Assembly (NCBI GenBank): GCA_038888155.1
Contig: JAWAJB010000004.1
Span: forward strand, 1 to 64,000
Direction: 5' to 3'
From: Desulfurococcaceae archaeon
GTDB lineage: Archaea; Thermoproteota; Thermoprotei_A; Sulfolobales; Desulfurococcaceae
DNA: 64,000 nucleotides
This document shows, piece by piece, positions 11,210 to 24,599 of the stretch. The notes under the pieces were generated by a model. It made no database searches, had not been told where the DNA came from, and worked only from the letters and a program-made list of their open reading frames with translations. Both the position numbers and the translations under genes were made by a program. Position 1 is the first letter of the stretch, and every line of letters begins with the position of its first letter.

Positions 11210-11444
11210 AGGAGCGCGCCCTATAAGTTAATGAGTAGCTATGATTCAAAGTGCTAAGATCGAAAGAGTAGCTCTAGTTCAGGGGCGCTGTAGTAAGGAA
11301 CTGTTGATGGTAGAGTGCCCTTGAGCATTCAACCGAATTTCAACGAACCCAAGGCTTTTTATATCTCTTTTCAGCAAAGCTTATTAATTCATCTCCAAAC
11401 CATTATCACTGGTGTTTCAAAACACCCGTGCAGGTGATAGCTTT

Positions 11445-12254
11445 TTGAAGGTGGCTGTCCTCGTTAAGCCAACGCCCGATATTACCAAGGTCAGGTTTGA
11501 CGTAGAGAGGGGGACTGTTGATAGATCTGGCGCTGAGCTTGAAATAAATCCATTTGACTTATATGCAGTTGAAGCAGCAGTGAAATTAAAAGAGACCTTT
11601 GGAGCAACTATTACAGCGATATCGATGGCCCCGATGCAGGGCGAAAAGGCCCTTAGGGATGCTATTGCACGAGGAGTTGATAGAGCTGTTTTGTTAACAG
11701 ACAAGAAATTCGCAGGCGCAGACACGCTATCCACTTCATACACCTTAGCCTCAGCGATTAGGAAACTCGGAGGTGCTGATCTGATTCTGTGCGGTGAAAA
11801 ATCCGTAGATGGTGACACTGCCCACATAGGACCTGAAGTGGCTGAGCACCTCGGCATTCCTCATGCATCATTTGTAACTCACATACAAGAAGTTACTGGG
11901 GAGAGTATAGTGGTTGAATCTGATTACGGCAGTGCTTACTATTCATTAGAGCTTAAACTGCCTGCAGTACTAGCAGTTTCTCGTCCTTTGTTGTTCAAAG
12001 GTAAGTTGATAGAGCCGAGAATTCCCAAGCTCAGCGACGTACTAAAAGCGAGAAGAGCTAAGATCGATCTGTGGGACGCGAATACCCTAGGAGATGTAGC
12101 AGACCCAACGAGGTTTGGACTATCAGGCTCACCTACAAGGGTCATAAAGGCCTTTTACGCCCTTGAGAAAACAAGAACTCCCGCTATTATCAAGGGGGAA
12201 GAGGCCGTTTTAGCTTTGCTTAAGATACTGCTGGAAAAAGGTGTGATTGCGTGA
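11445..12254 (+). CDS. etfB: Electron transfer flavoprotein beta subunit
   Basis: INPFD, AGADTLSTS, DGDTAHIGP and GSPT. TTG start placed after a GGTGA RBS. Confidence 0.92.
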   Translation: MKVAVLVKPTPDITKVRFDVERGTVDRSGAELEINPFDLYAVEAAVKLKETFGATITAISMAPMQGEKALRDAIARGVDRAVLLTDKKFAGADTLSTSYTLASAIRKLGGADLILCGEKSVDGDTAHIGPEVAEHLGIPHASFVTHIQEVTGESIVVESDYGSAYYSLELKLPAVLAVSRPLLFKGKLIEPRIPKLSDVLKARRAKIDLWDANTLGDVADPTRFGLSGSPTRVIKAFYALEKTRTPAIIKGEEAVLALLKILLEKGVIA

Positions 12255-13267
12255 CTTGGCGGGGTATACTGATATACGGCGAAAACTACAGCGGCGAAAT
12301 AAATCCAGCTGTTTACGAGCTACTGGGAAAGGCCTCAGAGCTAAAAACACGAATAGGCGGGAATGTATCTGTCGTTGTATTAACTCAGGATAACGAGTCA
12401 ATAATTGCAAAGGAACTAGTTGCGCATGGGGCCGATAATGTTGCAATATACCGAGTAAAAGAGAAGGAGAGACTCGCTAACTCGTTGCTCCACAGAGAAG
12501 TAGTTGTGCAGGCGATTTCCGAGCTTAAGCCAAAGCTAGTGTTAATAAGTGCAACGCCGTGGGGTAGGAGCCTAGGACCTCGGATTGCTGCTAGGCTCAA
12601 GACAGGTATTACTGCGGACTGCCTAGATATCTACATTAATGAGGCCGCCGAAATAGTACAAGTTAGGCCTGCATTCACTGGGAACATAATTGCTCATATA
12701 AAGACTACAACGGATCCCACTATAGCTACTGTTCGCCCAAAGGTATTTCAGCCAAATAAACCAGACTACAATAGAAGTGGCACTGTGGATATAAGGTCTG
12801 TTGACAGCATTGAGGTATCAGACGACACTCGCAAGATATCTGTTATAGGCTCCCCAAGGCAGAAAACAATACAGCTCTCCGAAGCCAACGTAATTATCGC
12901 TGTAGGTCGTGGATTAAAGAGCAAAGATGATATAAAGCTATTTGAAGATTTGGCTCGCGAAGTCCAAGGAGAGATAGCGTGTAGCAGGCCAATAGTTGAC
13001 TTGGGCTGGATGGATAGAGATAGACAAGTAGGGTTCAGCGGCAATATAGTTCGTCCCAAGGTATACATTGCATTCGGGATATCAGGGGCACCTCAGCATA
13101 TAGCTGGCATGAAGGACTCCGAGTTTATAGTAGCTATAAATTCTGACGAATCTGCCCCTATATCAAAATACTGCGATTTATTTGTTGTGGGCGACATGTA
13201 TAATATAGCATCGAGCTTATTATTGAAAATACGAGAAGCTAAGAGCAACGCGCGGAGAGTGGTCTAA
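12251..13267 (+). CDS. etfA: Electron transfer flavoprotein alpha subunit
   Basis: TGITADC, RPAF, GRG, QVGFSG, GISGAPQHIAGM and AINSD. Confidence 0.93.
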   Translation: MTWRGILIYGENYSGEINPAVYELLGKASELKTRIGGNVSVVVLTQDNESIIAKELVAHGADNVAIYRVKEKERLANSLLHREVVVQAISELKPKLVLISATPWGRSLGPRIAARLKTGITADCLDIYINEAAEIVQVRPAFTGNIIAHIKTTTDPTIATVRPKVFQPNKPDYNRSGTVDIRSVDSIEVSDDTRKISVIGSPRQKTIQLSEANVIIAVGRGLKSKDDIKLFEDLAREVQGEIACSRPIVDLGWMDRDRQVGFSGNIVRPKVYIAFGISGAPQHIAGMKDSEFIVAINSDESAPISKYCDLFVVGDMYNIASSLLLKIREAKSNARRVV

Positions 13268-14653
13268 TTGAGTTTACCCAAGGAATTAATAATAAGCCTC
13301 AGAGAGGCTTTAGGGGAAAAGTGGGTAGTGGATGATGAGACAGCAGTAGAGAGGTATTTGCAAGACGAAACACCTATTGGCGCTAAACCTGTCCCAAGCA
13401 AAGAGGTAGTTGTAGCTAAGCCGAGGACCACATCAGAAGTTTCCTCTGTAGTTAAGTTGGCGAACAAATACAGAGTGCCCGTATATCCTAGAGGCGGCGG
13501 AACTGGTCTTACTGGGGGATCCATCCCCCTGCAACCGGGTATTATTCTCTCGCTTGAGCGGATGGACAAAGTGAATGTAGATGCAGATAACATGGTAGCT
13601 GAGGTAGAGGCTGGAGTAACGCTCGGTAAACTGTTGGAGGAGGCTGATAAACACGGATTGATTTTCCCAGCACATCCCGGTGACGAGGGGGCATTTGTGG
13701 GTGGCCTAATAGCCTGCAACGCTGGCGGTGCAAGGGCTGTGAGAACAGGTGTAATGAGGAACTATGTATTGGGGATCGAGGTAGTGACAGGAACTGGCGA
13801 TGTTCTAAAACTTGGAGGAAAAACGATAAAGAACAACATGGGGTACAATCTCGCTCACTTATTTATAGGGAGTGAGGGCATTTTGGGAATAATAACTAAA
13901 GCTTATATCCGCTTATACCCAAAGTGGAAATATACGGCTACTGTTATTATGCCGTTCAATACTACTATCTCGGCCATTAAGACAGCTCAAAAAATCTTGT
14001 TCTCGGGGATGGTGCCTCTAGCCATGGAATACTTCGATAGACAGGTGATTGAGCTATCAGCAAAGAACCTTGGAACAACTTGGCAGGTAAGCTCAGGAGA
14101 CTACTTCCTCATGTTAATACTTGCCGAGCCCATTGAGGAGTCTATATTCTACCAAGTAGAAGCGATGAGTAAAATGGCAGAAGCCGAAGGAGGCCTAGAG
14201 CCGCTAATAGCTCAGAGAGAAGATGAGCAAAAGCATCTTCTAAAAATAAGAAGCGAGATCTTTACTGCACTGAAAGGCAAAATGTACGATTCGCTAGATA
14301 CAACTGTGCCAATAGGTGTAATCGACAAGTTTATTGATAAAATCAATGAAGTTGAGAAAAAATACCAAGTCTGGATTCCCACATATGGACACGTGGGGGA
14401 TGGCAATTTACACGTACACATTATGCGCTACCCTGGCTACAGTTCCGAGGAACTAGAGAACTTAAAGAATGAAATCTACTCGATTACAATTGAGTTGGGA
14501 GGTAACATTACAGGAGAGCATGGAATAGGTTACGCCCGTAGAAAATATGTTGAAAAAATGCTTGGGTTAACGTGGGTTGAAACAATGAAGTCGCTAAAGA
14601 AAGCATTAGACCCTAATAATATTCTGAATCCAGGAAAAGTCATTCCGGGATAG
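13268..14653 (+). CDS. FAD-binding oxidoreductase, GlcD/LctD (2-hydroxyacid dehydrogenase) family
   Basis: PRGGGTGLTGG, GSEGILGIIT, GHVGDGNLH, GEHGIG and LNPGK. Confidence 0.9.
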   Translation: MSLPKELIISLREALGEKWVVDDETAVERYLQDETPIGAKPVPSKEVVVAKPRTTSEVSSVVKLANKYRVPVYPRGGGTGLTGGSIPLQPGIILSLERMDKVNVDADNMVAEVEAGVTLGKLLEEADKHGLIFPAHPGDEGAFVGGLIACNAGGARAVRTGVMRNYVLGIEVVTGTGDVLKLGGKTIKNNMGYNLAHLFIGSEGILGIITKAYIRLYPKWKYTATVIMPFNTTISAIKTAQKILFSGMVPLAMEYFDRQVIELSAKNLGTTWQVSSGDYFLMLILAEPIEESIFYQVEAMSKMAEAEGGLEPLIAQREDEQKHLLKIRSEIFTALKGKMYDSLDTTVPIGVIDKFIDKINEVEKKYQVWIPTYGHVGDGNLHVHIMRYPGYSSEELENLKNEIYSITIELGGNITGEHGIGYARRKYVEKMLGLTWVETMKSLKKALDPNNILNPGKVIPG

Positions 14654-14691
14654 TTGCGCCAGCCATTAGACGCTTAAGCCAAGCACAGCTG

Positions 14692-14708
14692 GGAGAAATG
14701 TTTATAAG
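14692..14708 (+). promoter_or_regulatory. Promoter of the split tRNA-Asp 3' half
   Basis: GAGAAATG-TTTATAAG BRE/TATA about 25-30 nt upstream of the leader. Confidence 0.7.
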
Positions 14709-14733
14709 CTAGGTAAAAAAAAGATATGGTTTG

Positions 14734-14788
14734 GCGGGAAGGGGTGCACAGACAGCCCGTGACCCGGGTTCAAATCCCGGCGGCGGCG
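14734..14788 (+). tRNA. Split tRNA-Asp(GUC) 3' half (leader 14734-14753; mature part 14754-14788)
   Basis: A-GCCCG-UGAC-CCGGG-UUCAAAU-CCCGG-CGGCGGC-G corresponds to tRNA positions 38-73. The leader GCGGGAAGGGGUG is complementary to the trailer of the 5' half at 19410-19422, and ACAG pairs with anticodon-loop CUGU. Confidence 0.93.
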
Positions 14789-15398
14789 CACCCACTTTTA
14801 ACAAGGCTCCAAAAGTTAAGCTAATCCTGCTTTTACCCCTTCGTGCTATATCTCTAGTGGATTAGTTATTTTAATGGAATGGGTTTATTAACAACAATGT
14901 ATTGGCGTCCCTTTAATGCCGATAGGGCTTTAGACCCCAAGAGCTTAGTTTGTAAGAGAAATGGAAAGCGGCTAAGTTATGGAGATCTCGCTAAACAATC
15001 CCCTGCTACGCGGATAGCTGACGGCATTAATTTACTGAAAATTCTGCCGTTTGCAGCTCTGAATCAATTTGATGGCTAATACTAAGCGAGAATGTAAATT
15101 GTAATTTAAGGAGAATAGGGCATGTTCCTGCGGACAGATCACCTTTAAAAACTAATTTTACAATTTTACTCGCACTCTTGTTAGATAATCTTCGCGACTT
15201 TAATTGAAATCAGTTCAGTACAGCAAGAAGAATAAAGGAAGTAAACAATGCAGGCTATGAAGAGGTCGTAGAGCCGGCGAGAATAATTCATAGGTGCGAG
15301 TAGGTTAGGTACATAGCTAATGAGAGCTCATACAAATGAGTTCGCGTTAAGGCTTGCAATGACTTTATGAAGGAAAACAAACTAAATAAAAATTAATA

Positions 15399-18005
15399 TT
15401 AATGGACCAACTTCTTTTTGGTAAACAATAAGAAAGAGGCTAAAACTAGCGTTACTAGCGCTAATAGCTGAGCTAGCAAAGCGTAATCGTAATCTACTGT
15501 ACCCCCTACTGGCGGGGGCTTCGTAGTTTTTGGAGGCGTTGTTATTGGGCTTGTAACAGTTGGTGTTGTTGTAGGGGTCGGCGTGGGCGTTGGTGTGGGG
15601 GTAGGCGTAGGCGTGGGTGTTGGGCCTGAGGGAACTATTACTAATACAGGTGAAGTATCTGTATCTGATCCAGTGCTCCACGATACAATTGCCACGTTCA
15701 TTACTACTGTTCCGTTAAATATATTCTCATTAAGCAATGCTGATACCTCGAACTCAATGGTTTCGTGGGGTCCCACGCTTATCTCTGTCCAAATAACGGA
15801 GTGCGTAGTTTCATCGTACTCGCCTGCCGGCGAGCTCGAGATGTAAGTCACATTAGCAGGTAGGTAGTCCACTAGTTCGATTTCCGATAGGGCGCCCTCG
15901 GTGGGGTTTGTTAACTTTATAACAAAAGTTACCTGTTCGCCTGGAGGCGATTGTGTTGGGGATGTTTTCTCTACTTCAACATGCGGGTTAGCAAATAATT
16001 GAATTGGGTGGAAATCTGTAGAGGGACCGTATGGGTTGTTATCCTCGTCGGTCCAGTTTGAGTAAACGTTGTTCAATACTATTACACCGTCATACTCTAT
16101 GTGATCTACGATTGCTTGAACTGAAATTGTTATTGTTTCATCGGGATTCAGCGTACCTATATACCATGAAACAGTGTTAGTGGAGTTGTCATACTGATAT
16201 GTGTAGTTGGAGCTAACGAATTTGAGTCCATATGGAAGGTAATCATACAAGTAGACATTATGCGCAACACAGCCCCTGGCGTTAGTGACACTAACAATAA
16301 ATGAAACATAAGTCCCGATGTATCCTTTGCTATCTCCCGTTTTGCTTACAGTCAAAAACGGCCTCGTGCATACGCGCGTCAAAGTTGAGTCCTCAACTGG
16401 GCCGAACTCTGTTCCCTCGGCGTCTGTCCAGGTGACGCGAGCCCAATTTAAAAGGTCTGTAAACCCGTTTTCAACAGTTACGCTCATGTTAACTGTAATA
16501 GAGGCGACAAAGAGTTCGCCGGGGCCGAGCTCGCTTACTGTGAATTTTAGTACATTGTTTTCAACGAGTGGAGTAGGAGAGGCACTAATGTACGTAACTT
16601 CGTCTGGCAATTCATCCTCGATTGTAACGTTATAGGCTACACTGCCGCCAGTGTTGAGCACAGTAATAGTGTAGTTCACGATCCTGTTGGGATAAGTCAC
16701 CGTGGTGCCTGTTTTCGATATTTTGAGTAGCGGACTTGCCACTATAGTAGTCACAAAGTTATCCGTCGCTGGCCCATACAGTTGACCACTACTATCGCTC
16801 CATCTCAACTCAACGTTATCCTCTAGAGCTGTGCCATTTGGGACATCGCTTCGCACTTTTAAAATTAGCTCTATGTATGCTACAGCTCCCTTGCTCAATG
16901 TCCCCAAGCTCCACGTTATTGCGTTTTCGCTAATGCTTCCGCTTGGCACAGATGATATATACTCTACTTTGCTTAGATCTATAAAGTCCTTCACCAATAC
17001 ACTAAAGGCAGTTTCGTTGCCCACATTAGTTACTCTTATTGTATACCTAACTAAGCTGCCCGGGTAGCTAGTCGTAGGACCTACTTTCTCTACACTCAGA
17101 GCGGGTCCGGCTATTACCTTCGTTAAGAAGCTAGCTTGAGCCTCTTCAGCATTGTCCCCCCAGGCTTTTACCACATTATCTAAGTTAGTGCCTGGTAGAA
17201 GGTTAGGTGAGAGCTTGACTGTGAGGCTCACCACCGCATAGCTATTAGCGCAGATTGTTCCCAAGCTCCACTTAACTGTAGTGCTACTTACCTCGCTGGG
17301 GACAGGACCTGCACTTAGGTATTCTACGCCGGTCGGTAGAACTTCCTCGACGTAGACGTTGTCGGCTTTTACGTCGCCAGCGTTGCTCAAGGTTATAGTG
17401 TAAGTGTATATGCCTCCAGGATAGACCTCTACGGGGCCTGTTTTGAATATAGATAGCAGTGGTTTACCAGGAGAAACTTCTTGAATAACGTAGTAAAAGA
17501 AGCCCTTGAAGTACAGTCCATAAGCGCTACCTGTTTTCTTCGCGTTTTCATATATCGTTGCATGTGCCATTAAGTATATTTTGCCCCCAGTTCCAACTCC
17601 TCCGTCAATGTTGTTGAGGGGCACAATGTAGAGGTCTGAAGTAACGAGAATGGCGTGAGTTTTGCTGTACGGCCATTGCCCGGGAGCACTCCACTCAGGT
17701 TGAGCAGTTGACACATATAGGTGAGTCTCGTATATTTTGTAGCTTGGGTAGCTTTGAGAATCTATCTCGAACAAAACGTACAAGTAGTTTTCGTCATTCC
17801 ACACTTTTATAAACCCGATAGGTATATTGGTGGATCCCAGGACGAGAGGGACAACGTACAGCGCCTCCACAGAATATTCGCTAACCGTTTGTTGACTGAG
17901 TAAGGGGTTTGTATTGTTGCTCGTAGTTACTGAGTAGTTCAGTTGTACTAGAGAACAACATGTAATTAGAACAGACAGTATCATTATTATCGGGGATATG
18001 CTCAA
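15399..18005 (-). CDS. Cell-surface protein with five DUF11-like Ig repeats, Pro/Thr linker and C-terminal TM anchor
   Basis: N-terminal signal peptide; five repeats of P.L...K.G....PG..V.YTI...N.G...A..V...D.LP; (PT)n linker; hydrophobic helix followed by KKK. Confidence 0.85.
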   Translation of the reverse strand: MSISPIIMILSVLITCCSLVQLNYSVTTSNNTNPLLSQQTVSEYSVEALYVVPLVLGSTNIPIGFIKVWNDENYLYVLFEIDSQSYPSYKIYETHLYVSTAQPEWSAPGQWPYSKTHAILVTSDLYIVPLNNIDGGVGTGGKIYLMAHATIYENAKKTGSAYGLYFKGFFYYVIQEVSPGKPLLSIFKTGPVEVYPGGIYTYTITLSNAGDVKADNVYVEEVLPTGVEYLSAGPVPSEVSSTTVKWSLGTICANSYAVVSLTVKLSPNLLPGTNLDNVVKAWGDNAEEAQASFLTKVIAGPALSVEKVGPTTSYPGSLVRYTIRVTNVGNETAFSVLVKDFIDLSKVEYISSVPSGSISENAITWSLGTLSKGAVAYIELILKVRSDVPNGTALEDNVELRWSDSSGQLYGPATDNFVTTIVASPLLKISKTGTTVTYPNRIVNYTITVLNTGGSVAYNVTIEDELPDEVTYISASPTPLVENNVLKFTVSELGPGELFVASITVNMSVTVENGFTDLLNWARVTWTDAEGTEFGPVEDSTLTRVCTRPFLTVSKTGDSKGYIGTYVSFIVSVTNARGCVAHNVYLYDYLPYGLKFVSSNYTYQYDNSTNTVSWYIGTLNPDETITISVQAIVDHIEYDGVIVLNNVYSNWTDEDNNPYGPSTDFHPIQLFANPHVEVEKTSPTQSPPGEQVTFVIKLTNPTEGALSEIELVDYLPANVTYISSSPAGEYDETTHSVIWTEISVGPHETIEFEVSALLNENIFNGTVVMNVAIVSWSTGSDTDTSPVLVIVPSGPTPTPTPTPTPTPTPTPTTTPTVTSPITTPPKTTKPPPVGGTVDYDYALLAQLLALVTLVLASFLLFTKKKLVH
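15571..15624 (-). repeat. Hexamer-periodic repeat encoding the (Pro-Thr)n linker
   Basis: The plus strand reads GTAGGG/GTCGGC/GTGGGC/GTTGGT..., which translates as PTPTPT on the minus strand. Confidence 0.85.
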
Positions 18006-18119
18006 CTAGGTTCACCATAAAAATAAATTTAGATCTAGATTTAAAAACCACGTTAACCTGGTAGTTTTTACGAATTAGTTGAGCTAGATAATAAATCAAG
18101 TTTACTCTCATATTATCTG

Positions 18120-18881
18120 GTGATAGGTTTGCGAAGAGAGCTAGTTTTGGCGCTCCTGTTCTTAGTTGTAACTGTTTCTACGTACTTAATTAGGTTTAAT
18201 CAACCGATGAACGCGCCAGGTAATCAAGTGACTTTGACTGACAGAAACGCCTTTAGGCGGGCTGTATTGTTCGACGGATTACAGGAACTAACCCCTACTA
18301 GCGTATTTGTTCAGGAAGCCACGAACTTACTCGAGAGATCGGGGTTCTCCGTTGATTTTTGGGGAGGCGAGAACGTTACCGTGGAACTGCTTTTGAACCT
18401 AGAATACTACGACATTATCTTGCTGAGGCTCCACAGCGCAATTGCAAGCAATGGTGTATTATACATTTTCACAGGAGAGCTCTACGAGGGGGAAAAATAT
18501 TTAGTTCTGAGATCATCAGGCATTGTAGCTAGAGGTGTAGTAGCCTACATGAATAAAACCTATTTTGCACTCAACTCACATTACTTGGGTAAAAATGCTC
18601 AAACCAACTTAACAGGATCAATTGTTATATTGATGGGCTGCAAAGGCGCCAACGATCACGAGTTCGTGAAGAGCATCCTAGGTAGAGGGGCAAAAGCGTA
18701 CATTGCATGGGATGGAAACGTTAGCATAGAGCACTCCGACGTGGTGACACTAGAGCTTTTAAAGGCCCTAATTGAAGGGGGGTCGAACCCCATCGATGCT
18801 GTTAATAGAGTTATGAACGAGCTGGGACCAGATCCGCACTACGGTTCATCTCTTCAATGTTTCACACAAGTCTCAACATAG
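18120..18881 (+). CDS. Membrane-anchored/secreted protein, possible caspase-hemoglobinase (clan CD) fold peptidase
   Basis: N-terminal hydrophobic segment. YDIILLRLHS and IVILMGC resemble the His and Cys strand ends of CHAT/gingipain-like domains. Confidence 0.55.
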   Translation: MIGLRRELVLALLFLVVTVSTYLIRFNQPMNAPGNQVTLTDRNAFRRAVLFDGLQELTPTSVFVQEATNLLERSGFSVDFWGGENVTVELLLNLEYYDIILLRLHSAIASNGVLYIFTGELYEGEKYLVLRSSGIVARGVVAYMNKTYFALNSHYLGKNAQTNLTGSIVILMGCKGANDHEFVKSILGRGAKAYIAWDGNVSIEHSDVVTLELLKALIEGGSNPIDAVNRVMNELGPDPHYGSSLQCFTQVST

Positions 18882-19409
18882 CTACTTGTTAAGTGTAGCT
18901 CTCTCAACGACCTCTTATAGATTTAGGGGCAATATACATTCATGTGCCATTAAATATTGACTGCACCTTTACAGTGTTTTTGGACTAAATTTTGAACGCT
19001 ACCTCGTGATGAAACGTAAATTAATATCTCTTCACTTTGAGCATATAATAAATTGATGTATACTTTCGCACTTCTCTGCCATCTCGTTCAAGGATAATCA
19101 TGGCCTTCGGAGAAGACCTTTATCTGGCTGTTTTATATGCATAAATTATTGAGTGGTGTCGCTTGGGAGTAAACTTTAAGGAGAGATAGGGGTTTAAAGG
19201 TTTGCGCAAGTGGTCAATATATCACCCAAAAATCAATTACAGAGACTTTGAAAGTCTTTGAACCTTATTGGGGGTAGGGCTAAGCTCATTGGGTAGAAGG
19301 CGTGTAAAAATGTCTCTCTTAAGTGTTGCATTAATAATTTAGAGGCGCGCACAAGAATTCTCAAGGAAAACCTCTGTTGCATGTAATGCTAAAAGTTGTA
19401 AAGGAGAGT

Positions 19410-19464
19410 GCGGGAAGAGGTGTTCGACAGGCCCGCATACTCAACCGGGCTATACTACGGCGGC
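19410..19464 (-). tRNA. Split tRNA-Asp(GUC) 5' half (mature part 19464-19425; trailer 19424-19410)
   Basis: GCCGCCG-UA-GUAUAGCCCGGUUGAGUAUG-CGGGC-CUGUCG followed by AACACCUCUUCCCGC. The acceptor strand GCCGCCG pairs with CGGCGGC of the 3' half. TATA TTTTAAAAG lies about 30 nt upstream. Confidence 0.93.
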
Positions 19465-19537
19465 ACTAGTTCTAATTATTTCTTGAGAGCTTTTAAAATT
19501 TACTTTCTCCTAATCCAATTGCTGTTAAAATCGCTAC

Positions 19538-19738
19538 TTAAGGCACGTAGTACGGCTTTCCACTTAAGTCCAACAGACCTCTCTCCAGCTTCATTTTAGT
19601 CCTGTATCCAACGTACTTATCAACAGGACTATACCGCGGTGGATGCGGGACGATAAGCTCGCCGCTGCAGTAAGGACACTTCTCTCTTAGGATCACGTAA
19701 CGACTACACTTTTTGCACTTTCTCATCAACCAGTTCAA
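19538..19738 (-). CDS. nop10: H/ACA RNP protein Nop10
   Basis: CKKCSRY..L..KCPYC and PHPPRYSPVDKY. Confidence 0.93.
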   Translation of the reverse strand: MNWLMRKCKKCSRYVILREKCPYCSGELIVPHPPRYSPVDKYVGYRTKMKLERGLLDLSGKPYYVP

Positions 19739-20559
19739 ACCTTTTCACGCTCTGCAATAAATATCAATCCAAGAACTTTAGCTACACTTTCCCCTCTATC
19801 GATAGCATTAGTTGACTGTGTTTCCGCTGTTTTATAATCGCTAGAATATACTTCGAGTATGTACCGAGGCGAGCCCGAAACGTAAAGCTTGTGTTTAACG
19901 CCCTGCGACTCGAGGTAATCGGAAATAGCTCCTAGGCACTTCTTTAATCTCTCGACACCATCTGGGCTTGGAGACTGCAGAATTAATTTATACTTTACTC
20001 TAACTTCTTTGAGCTTAATGTGTCTTGTTGCTTCCTCAATTAATTGTTCAATCCATTCCTCACCTATTCCTGCCTTCCTCAACACGTCTGGTCCTCTGCT
20101 AAGAGCCTCTTCAAGTGCGTACATTACATCCGAGTACTTGTCCTCAAGCCTCCATACAACTTCCCTATAGGCTTCAGCGGTAGTCTTGCCTATCTTATCG
20201 GCCACTGTCTCGATAATCTTACACGCCTTCGAGTACCTCTTCCACCACTGCATCTTTCTTTGCCTATCTGTATCACTAATTCTCTTTAATGACACGTCTA
20301 TTTCCTTCTTTGACCTGTCTACACGAATAACTTTAACAACAACTTTCTGGCCCTCTCTTATAACTTCCTTGATGTCCTTAACCCACTTCGAAGATACTTC
20401 GCTCCACGGCAAGAAGGCCCTGTGGTTAAGGTACTCATCGAGGTTTACATAGGCCCCAAAGTCGTGAATCTCCCTTACTGTAGCTATGACTAACTCTCCT
20501 ATCTCGGGCAACTCCTTTCTCGGAATGACCATGTGTAATCGCCCCAGCTTAGCATTCAT
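19735..20559 (-). CDS. eif2a: Translation initiation factor 2 alpha subunit
   Basis: LPEIGELV, S1 domain GAYVNLDEY and IDVSLKR. The true start is probably the ATG at ~20532. Confidence 0.95.
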   Translation of the reverse strand: MNAKLGRLHMVIPRKELPEIGELVIATVREIHDFGAYVNLDEYLNHRAFLPWSEVSSKWVKDIKEVIREGQKVVVKVIRVDRSKKEIDVSLKRISDTDRQRKMQWWKRYSKACKIIETVADKIGKTTAEAYREVVWRLEDKYSDVMYALEEALSRGPDVLRKAGIGEEWIEQLIEEATRHIKLKEVRVKYKLILQSPSPDGVERLKKCLGAISDYLESQGVKHKLYVSGSPRYILEVYSSDYKTAETQSTNAIDRGESVAKVLGLIFIAEREKV

Positions 20560-23468: not shown

Positions 23469-24599
23469 TTACACACCCAGCTCGCTCAATTCTATTGGTA
23501 CTACAAAGTCCTTAATTAGTAAGAATAACCCTATAGGCGCACTCAATTTATAGATGTCGCCTTTAACTAAGCTCAAATGAGCTCCAAGTACATCGAGCTT
23601 GCCTGTCACCTTGGATCTAACTTTAATCTTACCCCTAAAGGGAGAGAAATGTTCGTAGCTGAGGTCTCTCACATCTTTGTTGAGGCTCATCTCGGTGACT
23701 CTTAAGCCCGCCTTCATATTAAGGCTCCCCCCAAACCTAGATAGCCTTGAAGTGTCCATGGTTACGACTTTATCGATGTTAATGCATATCTCTTTGAGGA
23801 TGCTCTCAACATCATTTAAATCAACTACCCTAATGTTTTTAAGACCCGTAATGCTCTGAACCTTAACTAGTCCTCTCCCTTCGGCAACGCCTAGCACCCT
23901 TTTCCTTAAACCGTACTCGAGTACGCTAAATACAGTTTTATTCCTGTGGCTTGGGAAAACCCTTCTCATATCTAGTCCATCGCAGGACAAGTAATCAGCT
24001 ATAATTCTTCTAGCCTCTCTATTTAGATGGAGGATCTCAGGGTCTATCACTTTGACGTGAAAGCCCCTATTACCTGAGAAGTAAACTTTGATTCTCCTGT
24101 AGCCAAAATCCTCTCTTAGTACATCTACTAGCCTTAATGTCTCCCCCCATGCCTTTTCAATGCATAACCACGGTAGCGGTGAATATAGGCTAGGTCTCCC
24201 TCCATCTGGGCAAGTAGAGATTTCGTTAAGCGAGATATCTCCACTGCTAGGACAAACCCAGAATTTTACGTTACAGCCTTCGTACTTGTCAGCGTCTATG
24301 TCAAATATCAGCTCTGAGCCTTCCCAGACTTTGCTCTCCATTCTATTCGCATCGGGCGCGCTGTATATTGCCGATGAGTAATATAAGTGTAATGGGGTTT
24401 TTACTGATGTAATGTAAGTGTATAATGCATCTATATAGGGAAACGCTAGGTGCCTTATGTACACGTTGTCCTCGAGGCTCTCGAGCGCTATCTCTCTTTT
24501 GTGAAGATCGTTAGGCTCTTCTAGGGGCTTCTTCATGTAGTAGCTACGTATGATCCTCTTCAAAACAATTATCCTACTAGTCTGTTCTCGGTGCGACAT
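23469..24599 (-). CDS. priS: DNA primase catalytic (small) subunit
   Basis: REIA, LYYSSAIY, ELIFDIDAD, FSGNRGFH and IDKVVTMDTSRL. Confidence 0.95.
   Translation of the reverse strand: MSHREQTSRIIVLKRIIRSYYMKKPLEEPNDLHKREIALESLEDNVYIRHLAFPYIDALYTYITSVKTPLHLYYSSAIYSAPDANRMESKVWEGSELIFDIDADKYEGCNVKFWVCPSSGDISLNEISTCPDGGRPSLYSPLPWLCIEKAWGETLRLVDVLREDFGYRRIKVYFSGNRGFHVKVIDPEILHLNREARRIIADYLSCDGLDMRRVFPSHRNKTVFSVLEYGLRKRVLGVAEGRGLVKVQSITGLKNIRVVDLNDVESILKEICINIDKVVTMDTSRLSRFGGSLNMKAGLRVTEMSLNKDVRDLSYEHFSPFRGKIKVRSKVTGKLDVLGAHLSLVKGDIYKLSAPIGLFLLIKDFVVPIELSELGV

Follow-up and report, generated by a model that had tools for sequence, protein, structure and literature searches.

Split transfer RNA (tRNA) genes are rare, and they are central to the debate over whether tRNAs were built by joining two half-genes or whether the break came later. 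In 2014, a review put the number of trans-spliced genes at 29, in seven genomes (PMC4033280). For tRNA-Asp, split genes are known from Aeropyrum and Thermosphaera, a precedent cited correctly by an earlier note on the DNA analyzed here, and function has been demonstrated experimentally in Aeropyrum pernix only, according to the portions of Chan et al. 2011 (PMC3218864) available to us. Our literature search, which included the 2014 review, returned no split tRNA-Asp beyond Thermosphaera aggregans and A. pernix; later publication is possible. Here we describe a tRNA-Asp(GUC) gene encoded as two halves, 4.6 kb apart, in the first 64,000 nt of contig JAWAJB010000004.1 from a Desulfurococcaceae archaeon (the window; C4:1-64000 in our numbering). 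The window is part of a 2.42-Mb metagenome bin of 134 contigs that is 97.4% complete with 6.4% contamination. We conclude that this is very probably a functional trans-spliced split tRNA-Asp(GUC) and the only tRNA-Asp of the organism. It is a new case of a rare, already known arrangement; its interest lies in the unsplit sister species and in a family-wide series of disruptions at the same site of this gene.

Among known cases, the one in Thermosphaera aggregans, also a split tRNA-Asp(GUC), comes closest (Chan, Cozen & Lowe 2011, Genome Biol 12:R38, in the part accessible to us). The two genes have in common the tRNA itself, the family, the site between positions 37 and 38, exons of 40 and 35 nt, and convergent halves on opposite strands. 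In both, the 5′ half follows eIF-2 alpha and Nop10, and a purine-rich leader/trailer duplex of ~13 bp is present; a TTTATAAG box before the T. aggregans 3′ half is a further likeness to the window. They differ in that the T. aggregans halves are adjacent (~160 bp), whereas those of the window lie 4.6 kb apart with three genes between. The T. aggregans leader and trailer (CACGCCCUUCUCC/GGAGAAGGGCGUG) are unlike those of the window, its bulge-helix-bulge (BHB) motif is canonical and lacks the A/C mismatch that we describe below, and the genus is different.

Comparison with more distant systems also reveals a mixture of shared and distinct features. The A. pernix gene has the same 37/38 site, the same exon lengths (40 and 35 nt) and a GC-rich stem after the BHB (14 bp in A. 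pernix), and the internal promoter that serves its 3′ half can be likened to the separate 3′-half promoter of the window. However, the A. pernix halves lie on the same strand ~120 nt apart and yield a rare read-through precursor, and the organism belongs to a different family. Dispersed halves are instead found in Nanoarchaeum equitans (e.g., tRNA-Glu, split at 37/38 into 40 and 35 nt) and Caldivirga maquilingensis, where a complementary GC-rich leader and trailer and cleavage by EndA at a BHB are likewise described in the portions of PMC4033280 and PMC3218864 that we could consult. Those two organisms carry many split tRNAs, and no unsplit close relative shares the splits, whereas we find one split tRNA in the window's organism and its sister species are unsplit.

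The 5′ exon of the window's gene occupies 19464→19425 on the minus strand. Its 40 nt correspond to Sprinzl positions 1–37 plus three additional D-loop nucleotides and supply the acceptor strand, the D-arm, the anticodon-stem 5′ strand and the CUGUCG loop with the anticodon GUC; the exon ends at G37 and is followed by AACACCUCUUCCCGC. The 35-nt 3′ exon, on the plus strand at 14754–14788 and preceded by GGCGGGAAGGGGUGCACAGAC, runs from A38 to G73, with the anticodon-stem 3′ strand, a variable loop of 4 nt, the full T-arm and the acceptor strand; CCA is not encoded. The halves converge on opposite strands with 4636 nt between them, a layout that excludes one shared transcript. Acceptor stem (GCCGCCG/CGGCGGC) and anticodon stem (CGGGC/GCCCG) pair across the halves. 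Joined by coordinates, the exons form a 75-nt sequence that ARAGORN, once CCA is appended, calls as tRNA-Asp(gtc), and that is identical at 75/75 positions to the continuous genes of four relatives in the same genus (G016, G002, G014 and G010; 4 of 13 continuous congener genes compared). In its native context the gene is overlooked by standard finders, as the earlier note had anticipated: ARAGORN reports four other tRNAs in the window and none at the split halves, and Rfam, applied to 14000–20200 at E ≤ 10, returns no tRNA, only chance-level partial matches (mascRNA, tmRNA T-arm). Because both tools miss the gene, genomes of this kind appear to be without tRNA-Asp.

The sequences flanking the exons are complementary and bring the junction into a BHB-like form. 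The trailer of the 5′ half (19410–19424, minus strand) contributes CACCUCUUCCCGC (19422–19410) and the leader of the 3′ half (14733–14753, plus strand) contributes GCGGGAAGGGGUG (14734–14746) to an outer helix of 13 bp, one of them G-U. Inside it, CUGU (positions 32–35) pairs with ACAG (14748–14751) as the 4-bp central helix, flanked by two 3-nt bulges, C36 G37 ^ A19424 and A14752 C14753 ^ A38, whose register puts both cuts at 37/38. The sole deviation from a strict BHB is a mismatch between A19423 and C14747, where the outer helix begins, and the motif is thus slightly relaxed. The earlier note had placed the two convergent halves at these coordinates and strands, 4.6 kb apart, and had claimed the cross-pairing of both stems, the 13-bp leader/trailer helix with its single G-U, and the near-BHB with one A-C mismatch and a splice at 37/38; direct reading of the sequence bears out each of these. 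Energy calculations argue that the pairing of the two RNAs is not due to chance: the two precursors co-fold at −72.4 kcal/mol, compared with −44.5 ± 3.5 for 300 shuffles of the 3′ precursor (best −56.7; z = −8). At 37 and 80 °C, respectively, an explicit cloverleaf-plus-BHB model containing standard pairs only scores −59.0 and −17.4 kcal/mol, and the 13-bp duplex alone −24.9 and −9.7 kcal/mol.

The nearest likeness to the window's trailer and leader is a cis intron. Introns at 37/38 of tRNA-Asp in several relatives (G156, G155, G015, G012, G134, G137 and others) have the same position and BHB layout. The G156 intron begins AACACCCUCUU and ends GGGUGCAUGGAA, for which the window's counterparts are AACACCUCUU and GGGGUGCACAGAC, and it carries the same A/C mismatch beside the 5′ bulge; G155 has A-U there. 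In the cis introns a hairpin loop links the two strands within one transcript, whereas in the window the strands belong to separate transcripts, and the helix spans 13 bp rather than 7.

Each half is preceded by a promoter-like element of its own. A TATA-like box, TTTTAAAA, at 19491–19498 (minus strand) begins 34 nt upstream of G1 of the 5′ half. For the 3′ half, the box TTTATAA at 14701–14707 (plus strand), preceded by the purine-rich GAGAAATG, begins 32 nt before G14733, which leads to a predicted leader of ~21 nt. As a reference we used the upstream regions of 60 tRNA genes in the same genome, with random genome positions as control. Among the former, 33 of 55 TTTWWA boxes begin 30–39 nt before the mature 5′ end, so the spacings of 34 and 32 nt, judged at the level of sequence, are the modal ones for tRNA genes of this genome. 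Random positions have a TTTWWA-type box at that spacing in 2.0% of cases and TTTATAA in 0.16%. The claim that each half has its own TATA box is thus upheld to the extent that sequence can tell, and the same TTTATAA(G/A) box also precedes the 3′ halves of other lineages. Likely archaeal terminators follow both halves: T-runs (TTT, TTTT) at 19391–19402 (minus strand), 3′ of the trailer, and a T-run in the 3′ tail CACCCACTTTT at 14789–14799 (plus strand).

Whereas the sequence features above and the gene content below are direct observations, for transcription, annealing, cleavage and ligation we reason by analogy to A. pernix. Two short RNAs would be transcribed from their own promoters, on opposite strands and 4.6 kb apart, the first consisting of the 5′ exon and a trailer of ~15 nt, the second of a leader of ~21 nt and the 3′ exon. 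They would anneal by way of the GC-rich leader/trailer helix of 13 bp together with the acceptor and anticodon stems, creating a slightly relaxed BHB at the canonical intron position. The crenarchaeal splicing endonuclease would then cut after G37 and before A38, RtcB would ligate the exons, and the product would be trimmed at its 3′ tail and receive CCA. Genes for such machinery are present in the bin: a canonical EndA (C4:102321-102572; TIGR00324, 104 bits), a second, divergent paralogue of the EndA fold with weak resemblance to beta subunits (C3:116569-116805), and an RtcB ligase (C3:118380-119684; 587 bits). The enzyme of crenarchaea, an (alpha-beta)2 endonuclease, cleaves relaxed as well as strict BHBs, as stated in the part of Hirata 2019 (PMC6379350) available to us. 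We infer this type here, because the second paralogue scores under the NCBIfam beta-subunit cut-offs. RtcB lies directly downstream of the divergent paralogue (G000:C3:116569-119684, G000 being the window's own assembly; loci L075 and L076), and the two genes, for a splicing endonuclease subunit and the ligase, appear to be organized as a pair.

The proposal that this is the organism's only tRNA-Asp rests on several genome-wide searches. ARAGORN with introns allowed made 69 calls in the whole assembly, covering 19 amino acids and none for Asp, which leaves Asp as the sole amino acid without a conventional tRNA gene. A scan of the assembly with RF00005 gave 67 matches; apart from one AT-rich fragment, all of them (66) overlap ARAGORN calls for tRNAs other than Asp. 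Inspection of 22 intron-bearing or odd tRNA calls revealed no Asp-type D-arm and no GUC loop. The only relatives detected by BLAST with the halves are two tRNA-Glu genes, identical at 38 of 41 positions in the 5′ part; these account for the remaining two of the three Asp/Glu-type 5′ halves in the assembly, and the genome contains a single occurrence of the 5′ exon's final 16 nt. The check proposed in the earlier note, for another tRNA-Asp(GUC), therefore found none in this 97.4%-complete bin by ARAGORN, RF00005, BLAST or 16-mer search. Beyond the assembly, an exact scan of genome contigs for the leader/exon junction gave 0 records, and a metagenome scan, made with a pattern that was too loose, gave 103 stretches; of 80 loci inspected, 79 turned out to be unrelated coding DNA rich in GC, with no second copy of the split, and the remaining one (L098) is a tRNA-Asp with an intron starting AACACC.

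Several observations weigh against a working trans-spliced gene. The bin is fragmented, and at 134 contigs and the completeness given above an intact tRNA-Asp copy could have been left unassembled. The BHB is not strictly canonical, owing to the A/C mismatch. The minimum-free-energy fold favors a shifted junction register, in which U33–C36 pair with GACA, over the BHB register; nearest-neighbor rules penalize BHBs, so this weakens the prediction without making the BHB impossible. The 3′ precursor on its own is predicted to sequester its leader with its tail. From the one metatranscriptome that contains part of the stretch (X7) came only short tRNA-like contigs with foreign flanks, none of which can be assigned to the halves, and a 720-nt piece of the DUF11 gene. 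Finally, the complementarity of leader and trailer could derive from an old intron hairpin, and it is therefore no stand-alone proof of present function.

Some of these points would also fit a different account, in which the two pieces are dead remnants of a tRNA-Asp broken by rearrangement and the working copy lies in an unassembled part of the genome. That tRNA genes are often missed in incomplete, fragmented bins would suit this account, as would the long-hairpin introns of relatives, from which the complementarity may be inherited. We nevertheless consider it unlikely. The ancestral eIF2-alpha/Nop10 locus already holds the 5′ half, and genomes of the family usually have one exon copy (only G131 gave two matches). 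Moreover, neither exon shows decay and both match their functional orthologues letter for letter, a consensus TATA box precedes the 3′ half at the proper spacing (~0.2–2% expected at a random breakpoint), and Asp is the one amino acid for which no tRNA gene was found.

The cis pairing within the 3′ half had been singled out by the earlier note as an alternative fold that might regulate annealing. The complementarity itself is there: GGGUGC (14742–14747) matches GCACCC (14788–14793), and in the isolated 3′ precursor leader positions 14737–14747 are predicted to pair with the tail at 14788–14799 with probabilities >0.99, the tail segment 14789–14799 being complementary in cis to 14737–14747. This leader/tail duplex, at −16.8 kcal/mol, is equalled by 0.6% of shuffled leaders (500 shuffles). 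A regulatory role gains no support beyond the prediction, and in 11 other 3′ halves we found no comparable helix; because 0.04–0.64 of shuffles reach the observed energy in those, the cis helix is not general among 3′ halves; it may be peculiar to this locus or due to chance. If folding proceeds as modeled, the 3′ half may mask its own leader by an 11-bp cis helix until displaced by the 5′ half, and any regulatory role of that helix is speculation.

Similarity between tRNA-Asp and tRNA-Glu bears on the identity of the 3′ piece. The tRNA-Asp 3′ exon at positions 38–72 (14754–14787) matches the 3′ part of tRNA-Glu(UUC) (G000:C1:421319-421352) at 34 of 34 nt. The 5′ exons of the two tRNAs differ at 3 of 41 positions, and the discriminator is G in Asp and A in Glu; anticodon, one D-loop base and discriminator are the sole distinctions between them. 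One could read 14754–14788 as having no relation to the 5′ piece and as the attachment-site remnant, a partial tRNA copy, of an integrated element whose target was tRNA-Asp or tRNA-Glu. Partial tRNA fragments are known at crenarchaeal integration sites (Chan et al. 2011, PMC3218864, in the portions seen by us), and both the 34-nt identity to tRNA-Glu(UUC) and the absence of the 11.2–19.4-kb stretch from the corresponding locus in relatives would be expected on such a reading. Yet that stretch contains no integrase or mobile gene, its genes being ETF, an FAD oxidase, a DUF11 protein and two unknowns, and the tRNA part has no flanking direct repeats. The discriminator is the G of Asp rather than the A of Glu, and a remnant would not bring with it a 13-bp complement of the 5′-half trailer and an in-register BHB. 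We regard an attachment-site origin as very improbable.

A mis-join of the assembly at the tRNA-Asp/tRNA-Glu repeat would produce a superficially similar picture, given that the sequence comes from a metagenome bin and that the 3′ exon is a 34-nt exact repeat in the genome. Contigs of the wider community do show many joints and loose ends at these positions, but they trace to intact genes of other organisms: opposite-strand joints at 14748–14754/19419–19422 in the DNA runs represent continuous tRNA genes of other organisms and are not evidence of splicing. Gaps in cover, in X3, X5 and the metatranscriptome X7, carry no weight in either direction. Logan contigs from two other runs and two studies cover 19223–19550 (X2) and 19357–19524 (X3) with 0 differences and bridge promoter, 5′ exon, trailer and flank, and a single X2 contig spans 14650–14781, comprising flank, leader and 28 nt of the 3′ exon. 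Because these independent contigs match the 5′ half and trailer without differences, and since a mis-join is unable to generate a complementary leader and trailer with a BHB, we see almost no chance that the split is an artefact.

Having weighed these alternatives, we return to the trans-spliced gene and its distribution among relatives. Members of the genus are bins of uncultured Desulfurococcaceae recovered from hot springs. Fifteen of its 16 other genomes carry the 5′ exon, 13 in a continuous gene and two in a gene with a 37/38 intron (27 or 30 nt). With 13 continuous genes, two introns and one split within a single genus, a late, repeated origin is favored. Because all 15 other gene-bearing congeners are unsplit, we take the window's split to have an origin separate from those published for Thermosphaera and Aeropyrum.

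We extended the survey to 62 genomes of the family, 56 of which carry the tRNA-Asp 5′ exon, usually in single copy. The gene is continuous in 37 of the 56. Nine have a cis intron at 37/38, of 18–49 nt in the eight complete ones; the ninth, in G155, is cut by a contig end. Three (G153, G154 and G023) have a convergent adjacent split of the Thermosphaera type, and three (G123, G125 and G138) have same-strand halves ~450 nt apart with an internal TATA box, as in Aeropyrum. In another three (G140–142) the halves are distant or on separate contigs, and in one (G021) the gene is permuted, with the 3′ exon, a 4-nt linker and the 5′ exon behind one promoter. Four other split lineages of the family, and the genome of another family that matches A. 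pernix, each have their own leader and trailer sequences, with duplexes of 13–19 pairs; the corresponding duplex of the permuted gene has 10 pairs.

Individual members of this series merit description. The same-strand adjacent split of G123 (L038/L077), G125 (L040/L078) and G138 (L055/L084), which represent three further genera, has a TTTATAA box ahead of the 3′ half, and its leader and trailer form a perfect duplex of 19 bp. The distant split is present in all three genomes of one genus: in G140 (L058/L080) the halves lie 33.5 kb apart on opposite strands, in G141 (L059/L090) and G142 (L060/L091) they are on different contigs, and the duplexes have 15–18 pairs. The permuted tRNA-Asp(GUC) of G021 (L086; C45, ~24083–24190) is arranged as TATA box, leader, 3′ exon, linker CUCG, 5′ exon and trailer. 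Its rotated join is called as tRNA-Asp by ARAGORN, which finds 0 genes at the native locus, and its 5′ exon is the sole copy in the genome. Our literature search, again including the 2014 review (PMC4033280), found no permuted archaeal tRNA beyond Thermofilum pendens; here too, later publication is possible. The survey suggests that public metagenome bins hold far more disrupted tRNA-Asp genes, one of them permuted, than are recorded in the papers we consulted.

These data raise the proposition, which we judge about as likely as not, that site 37/38 is a hotspot at which tRNA-Asp(GUC) has been broken repeatedly in Desulfurococcaceae and that the window captures an independent, recent transition from intron to split gene. 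The six gene states at this site across 56 genomes would then imply at least five separate disruption events. Under this scenario, the hairpin of a cis intron of the G156 type would have been opened into two transcripts and its helix extended from 7 to 13 bp. If true, the disruption series would provide a graded natural set for the debate over whether split tRNAs are ancestral or derived.

The surroundings of the two halves offer further clues to how the gene came apart. Nop10 (19538–19738, minus strand) and eIF-2 alpha (19735–20559, minus strand), both identified by Pfam, are the upstream neighbors of the 5′ half. The order eIF-2 alpha/Nop10/tRNA-Asp is kept in all 10 relatives' loci that we compared (~±10 kb each, less at contig ends) and marks the ancestral tRNA-Asp locus; eIF-2 alpha and Nop10 are described upstream of tRNA-Asp in Desulfurococcus and Thermosphaera as well (Chan et al. 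2011, PMC3218864, in the portions available). An 8.2-kb stretch downstream (~11.2–19.4 kb of the window) has no homologues at the locus in any of the 10 relatives, and in six (G012, G015, G007, G006, G003 and G022) the 3′ side of tRNA-Asp abuts the equivalent of window positions 8.0–11.15 kb. In G002, blocks of the 8.2-kb stretch sit elsewhere, and homologues of the DUF11 and 253-aa proteins form a pair 32 kb from tRNA-Asp. Searches of 11.2–19.4 kb turned up neither an integrase nor any other gene of a mobile element; repeats at the borders of the inserted region, direct or inverted, do not exceed chance size, and no foreign island stands out in the base-composition profile.

On the minus strand at 19411–19399, directly after the trailer helix, GCACTCTCCTTTA corresponds to G73 and the 3′ flank of the continuous G013 gene (L034), and GCACUCUCCUUUA after the trailer is identical to G73 and flank of that intact gene. 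The flank gives the appearance that positions 38–72 alone were removed from the ancestral locus. It may also be convergence, and homology is not certain because pyrimidine-rich 3′ flanks are common among tRNAs of this genome. A single 4.6-kb inversion with its breakpoint in the intron was considered as the origin of the split and is contradicted by G73 and its flank after the trailer and by the presence of 11.2–19.4-kb homologues at the locus in 0 of 10 relatives. Duplication followed by reciprocal loss fits the flank sequences better than inversion. We infer that the split is a recent event within this uncultured genus; it probably began from a 37/38-intron gene with a long hairpin, and a local rearrangement accompanying it would have brought other DNA, 8.2 kb in length, to the downstream side of the 5′ half.

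The genes around the 3′ half comprise an operon for ETF beta, ETF alpha and an FAD-linked oxidase (11412–14653, plus strand), which ends 80 nt before the 3′ half. Between the halves lie a 66-aa open reading frame (14879–15079, plus strand), a DUF11-repeat protein of 868 aa (15399–18005, minus strand) and a 253-aa protein with no Pfam family (18120–18881, plus strand). With five DUF11 repeats and CARDB-like domains, the 868-aa protein is probably a surface protein. A 720-nt contig of metatranscriptome X7 matches its gene at 16315–17034 with 2 differences.

Other features of the G000 assembly became apparent during this work. Its twelve contigs of ≥20 kb sum to 1.41 Mb, as in congeners, and 122 smaller ones add 1.02 Mb; the small contigs hold duplicate tRNAs, for example five tRNA-Ser(GCU) and three tRNA-Arg(UCG), and the bin probably mixes strains or organisms. 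Several intron-bearing tRNAs are mislabeled as Ser or 'Stop' by ARAGORN (C3:11335, C1:445291, C2:178220, C3:67154, C3:85610 and C4:110630); by eye, their identities are Thr(CGU), Ala(UGC), Pro(GGG), Pro(CGG), Val(UAC) and Gln(UUG). The tRNA-Glu(CUC) gene has a non-canonical intron in the variable/T region.

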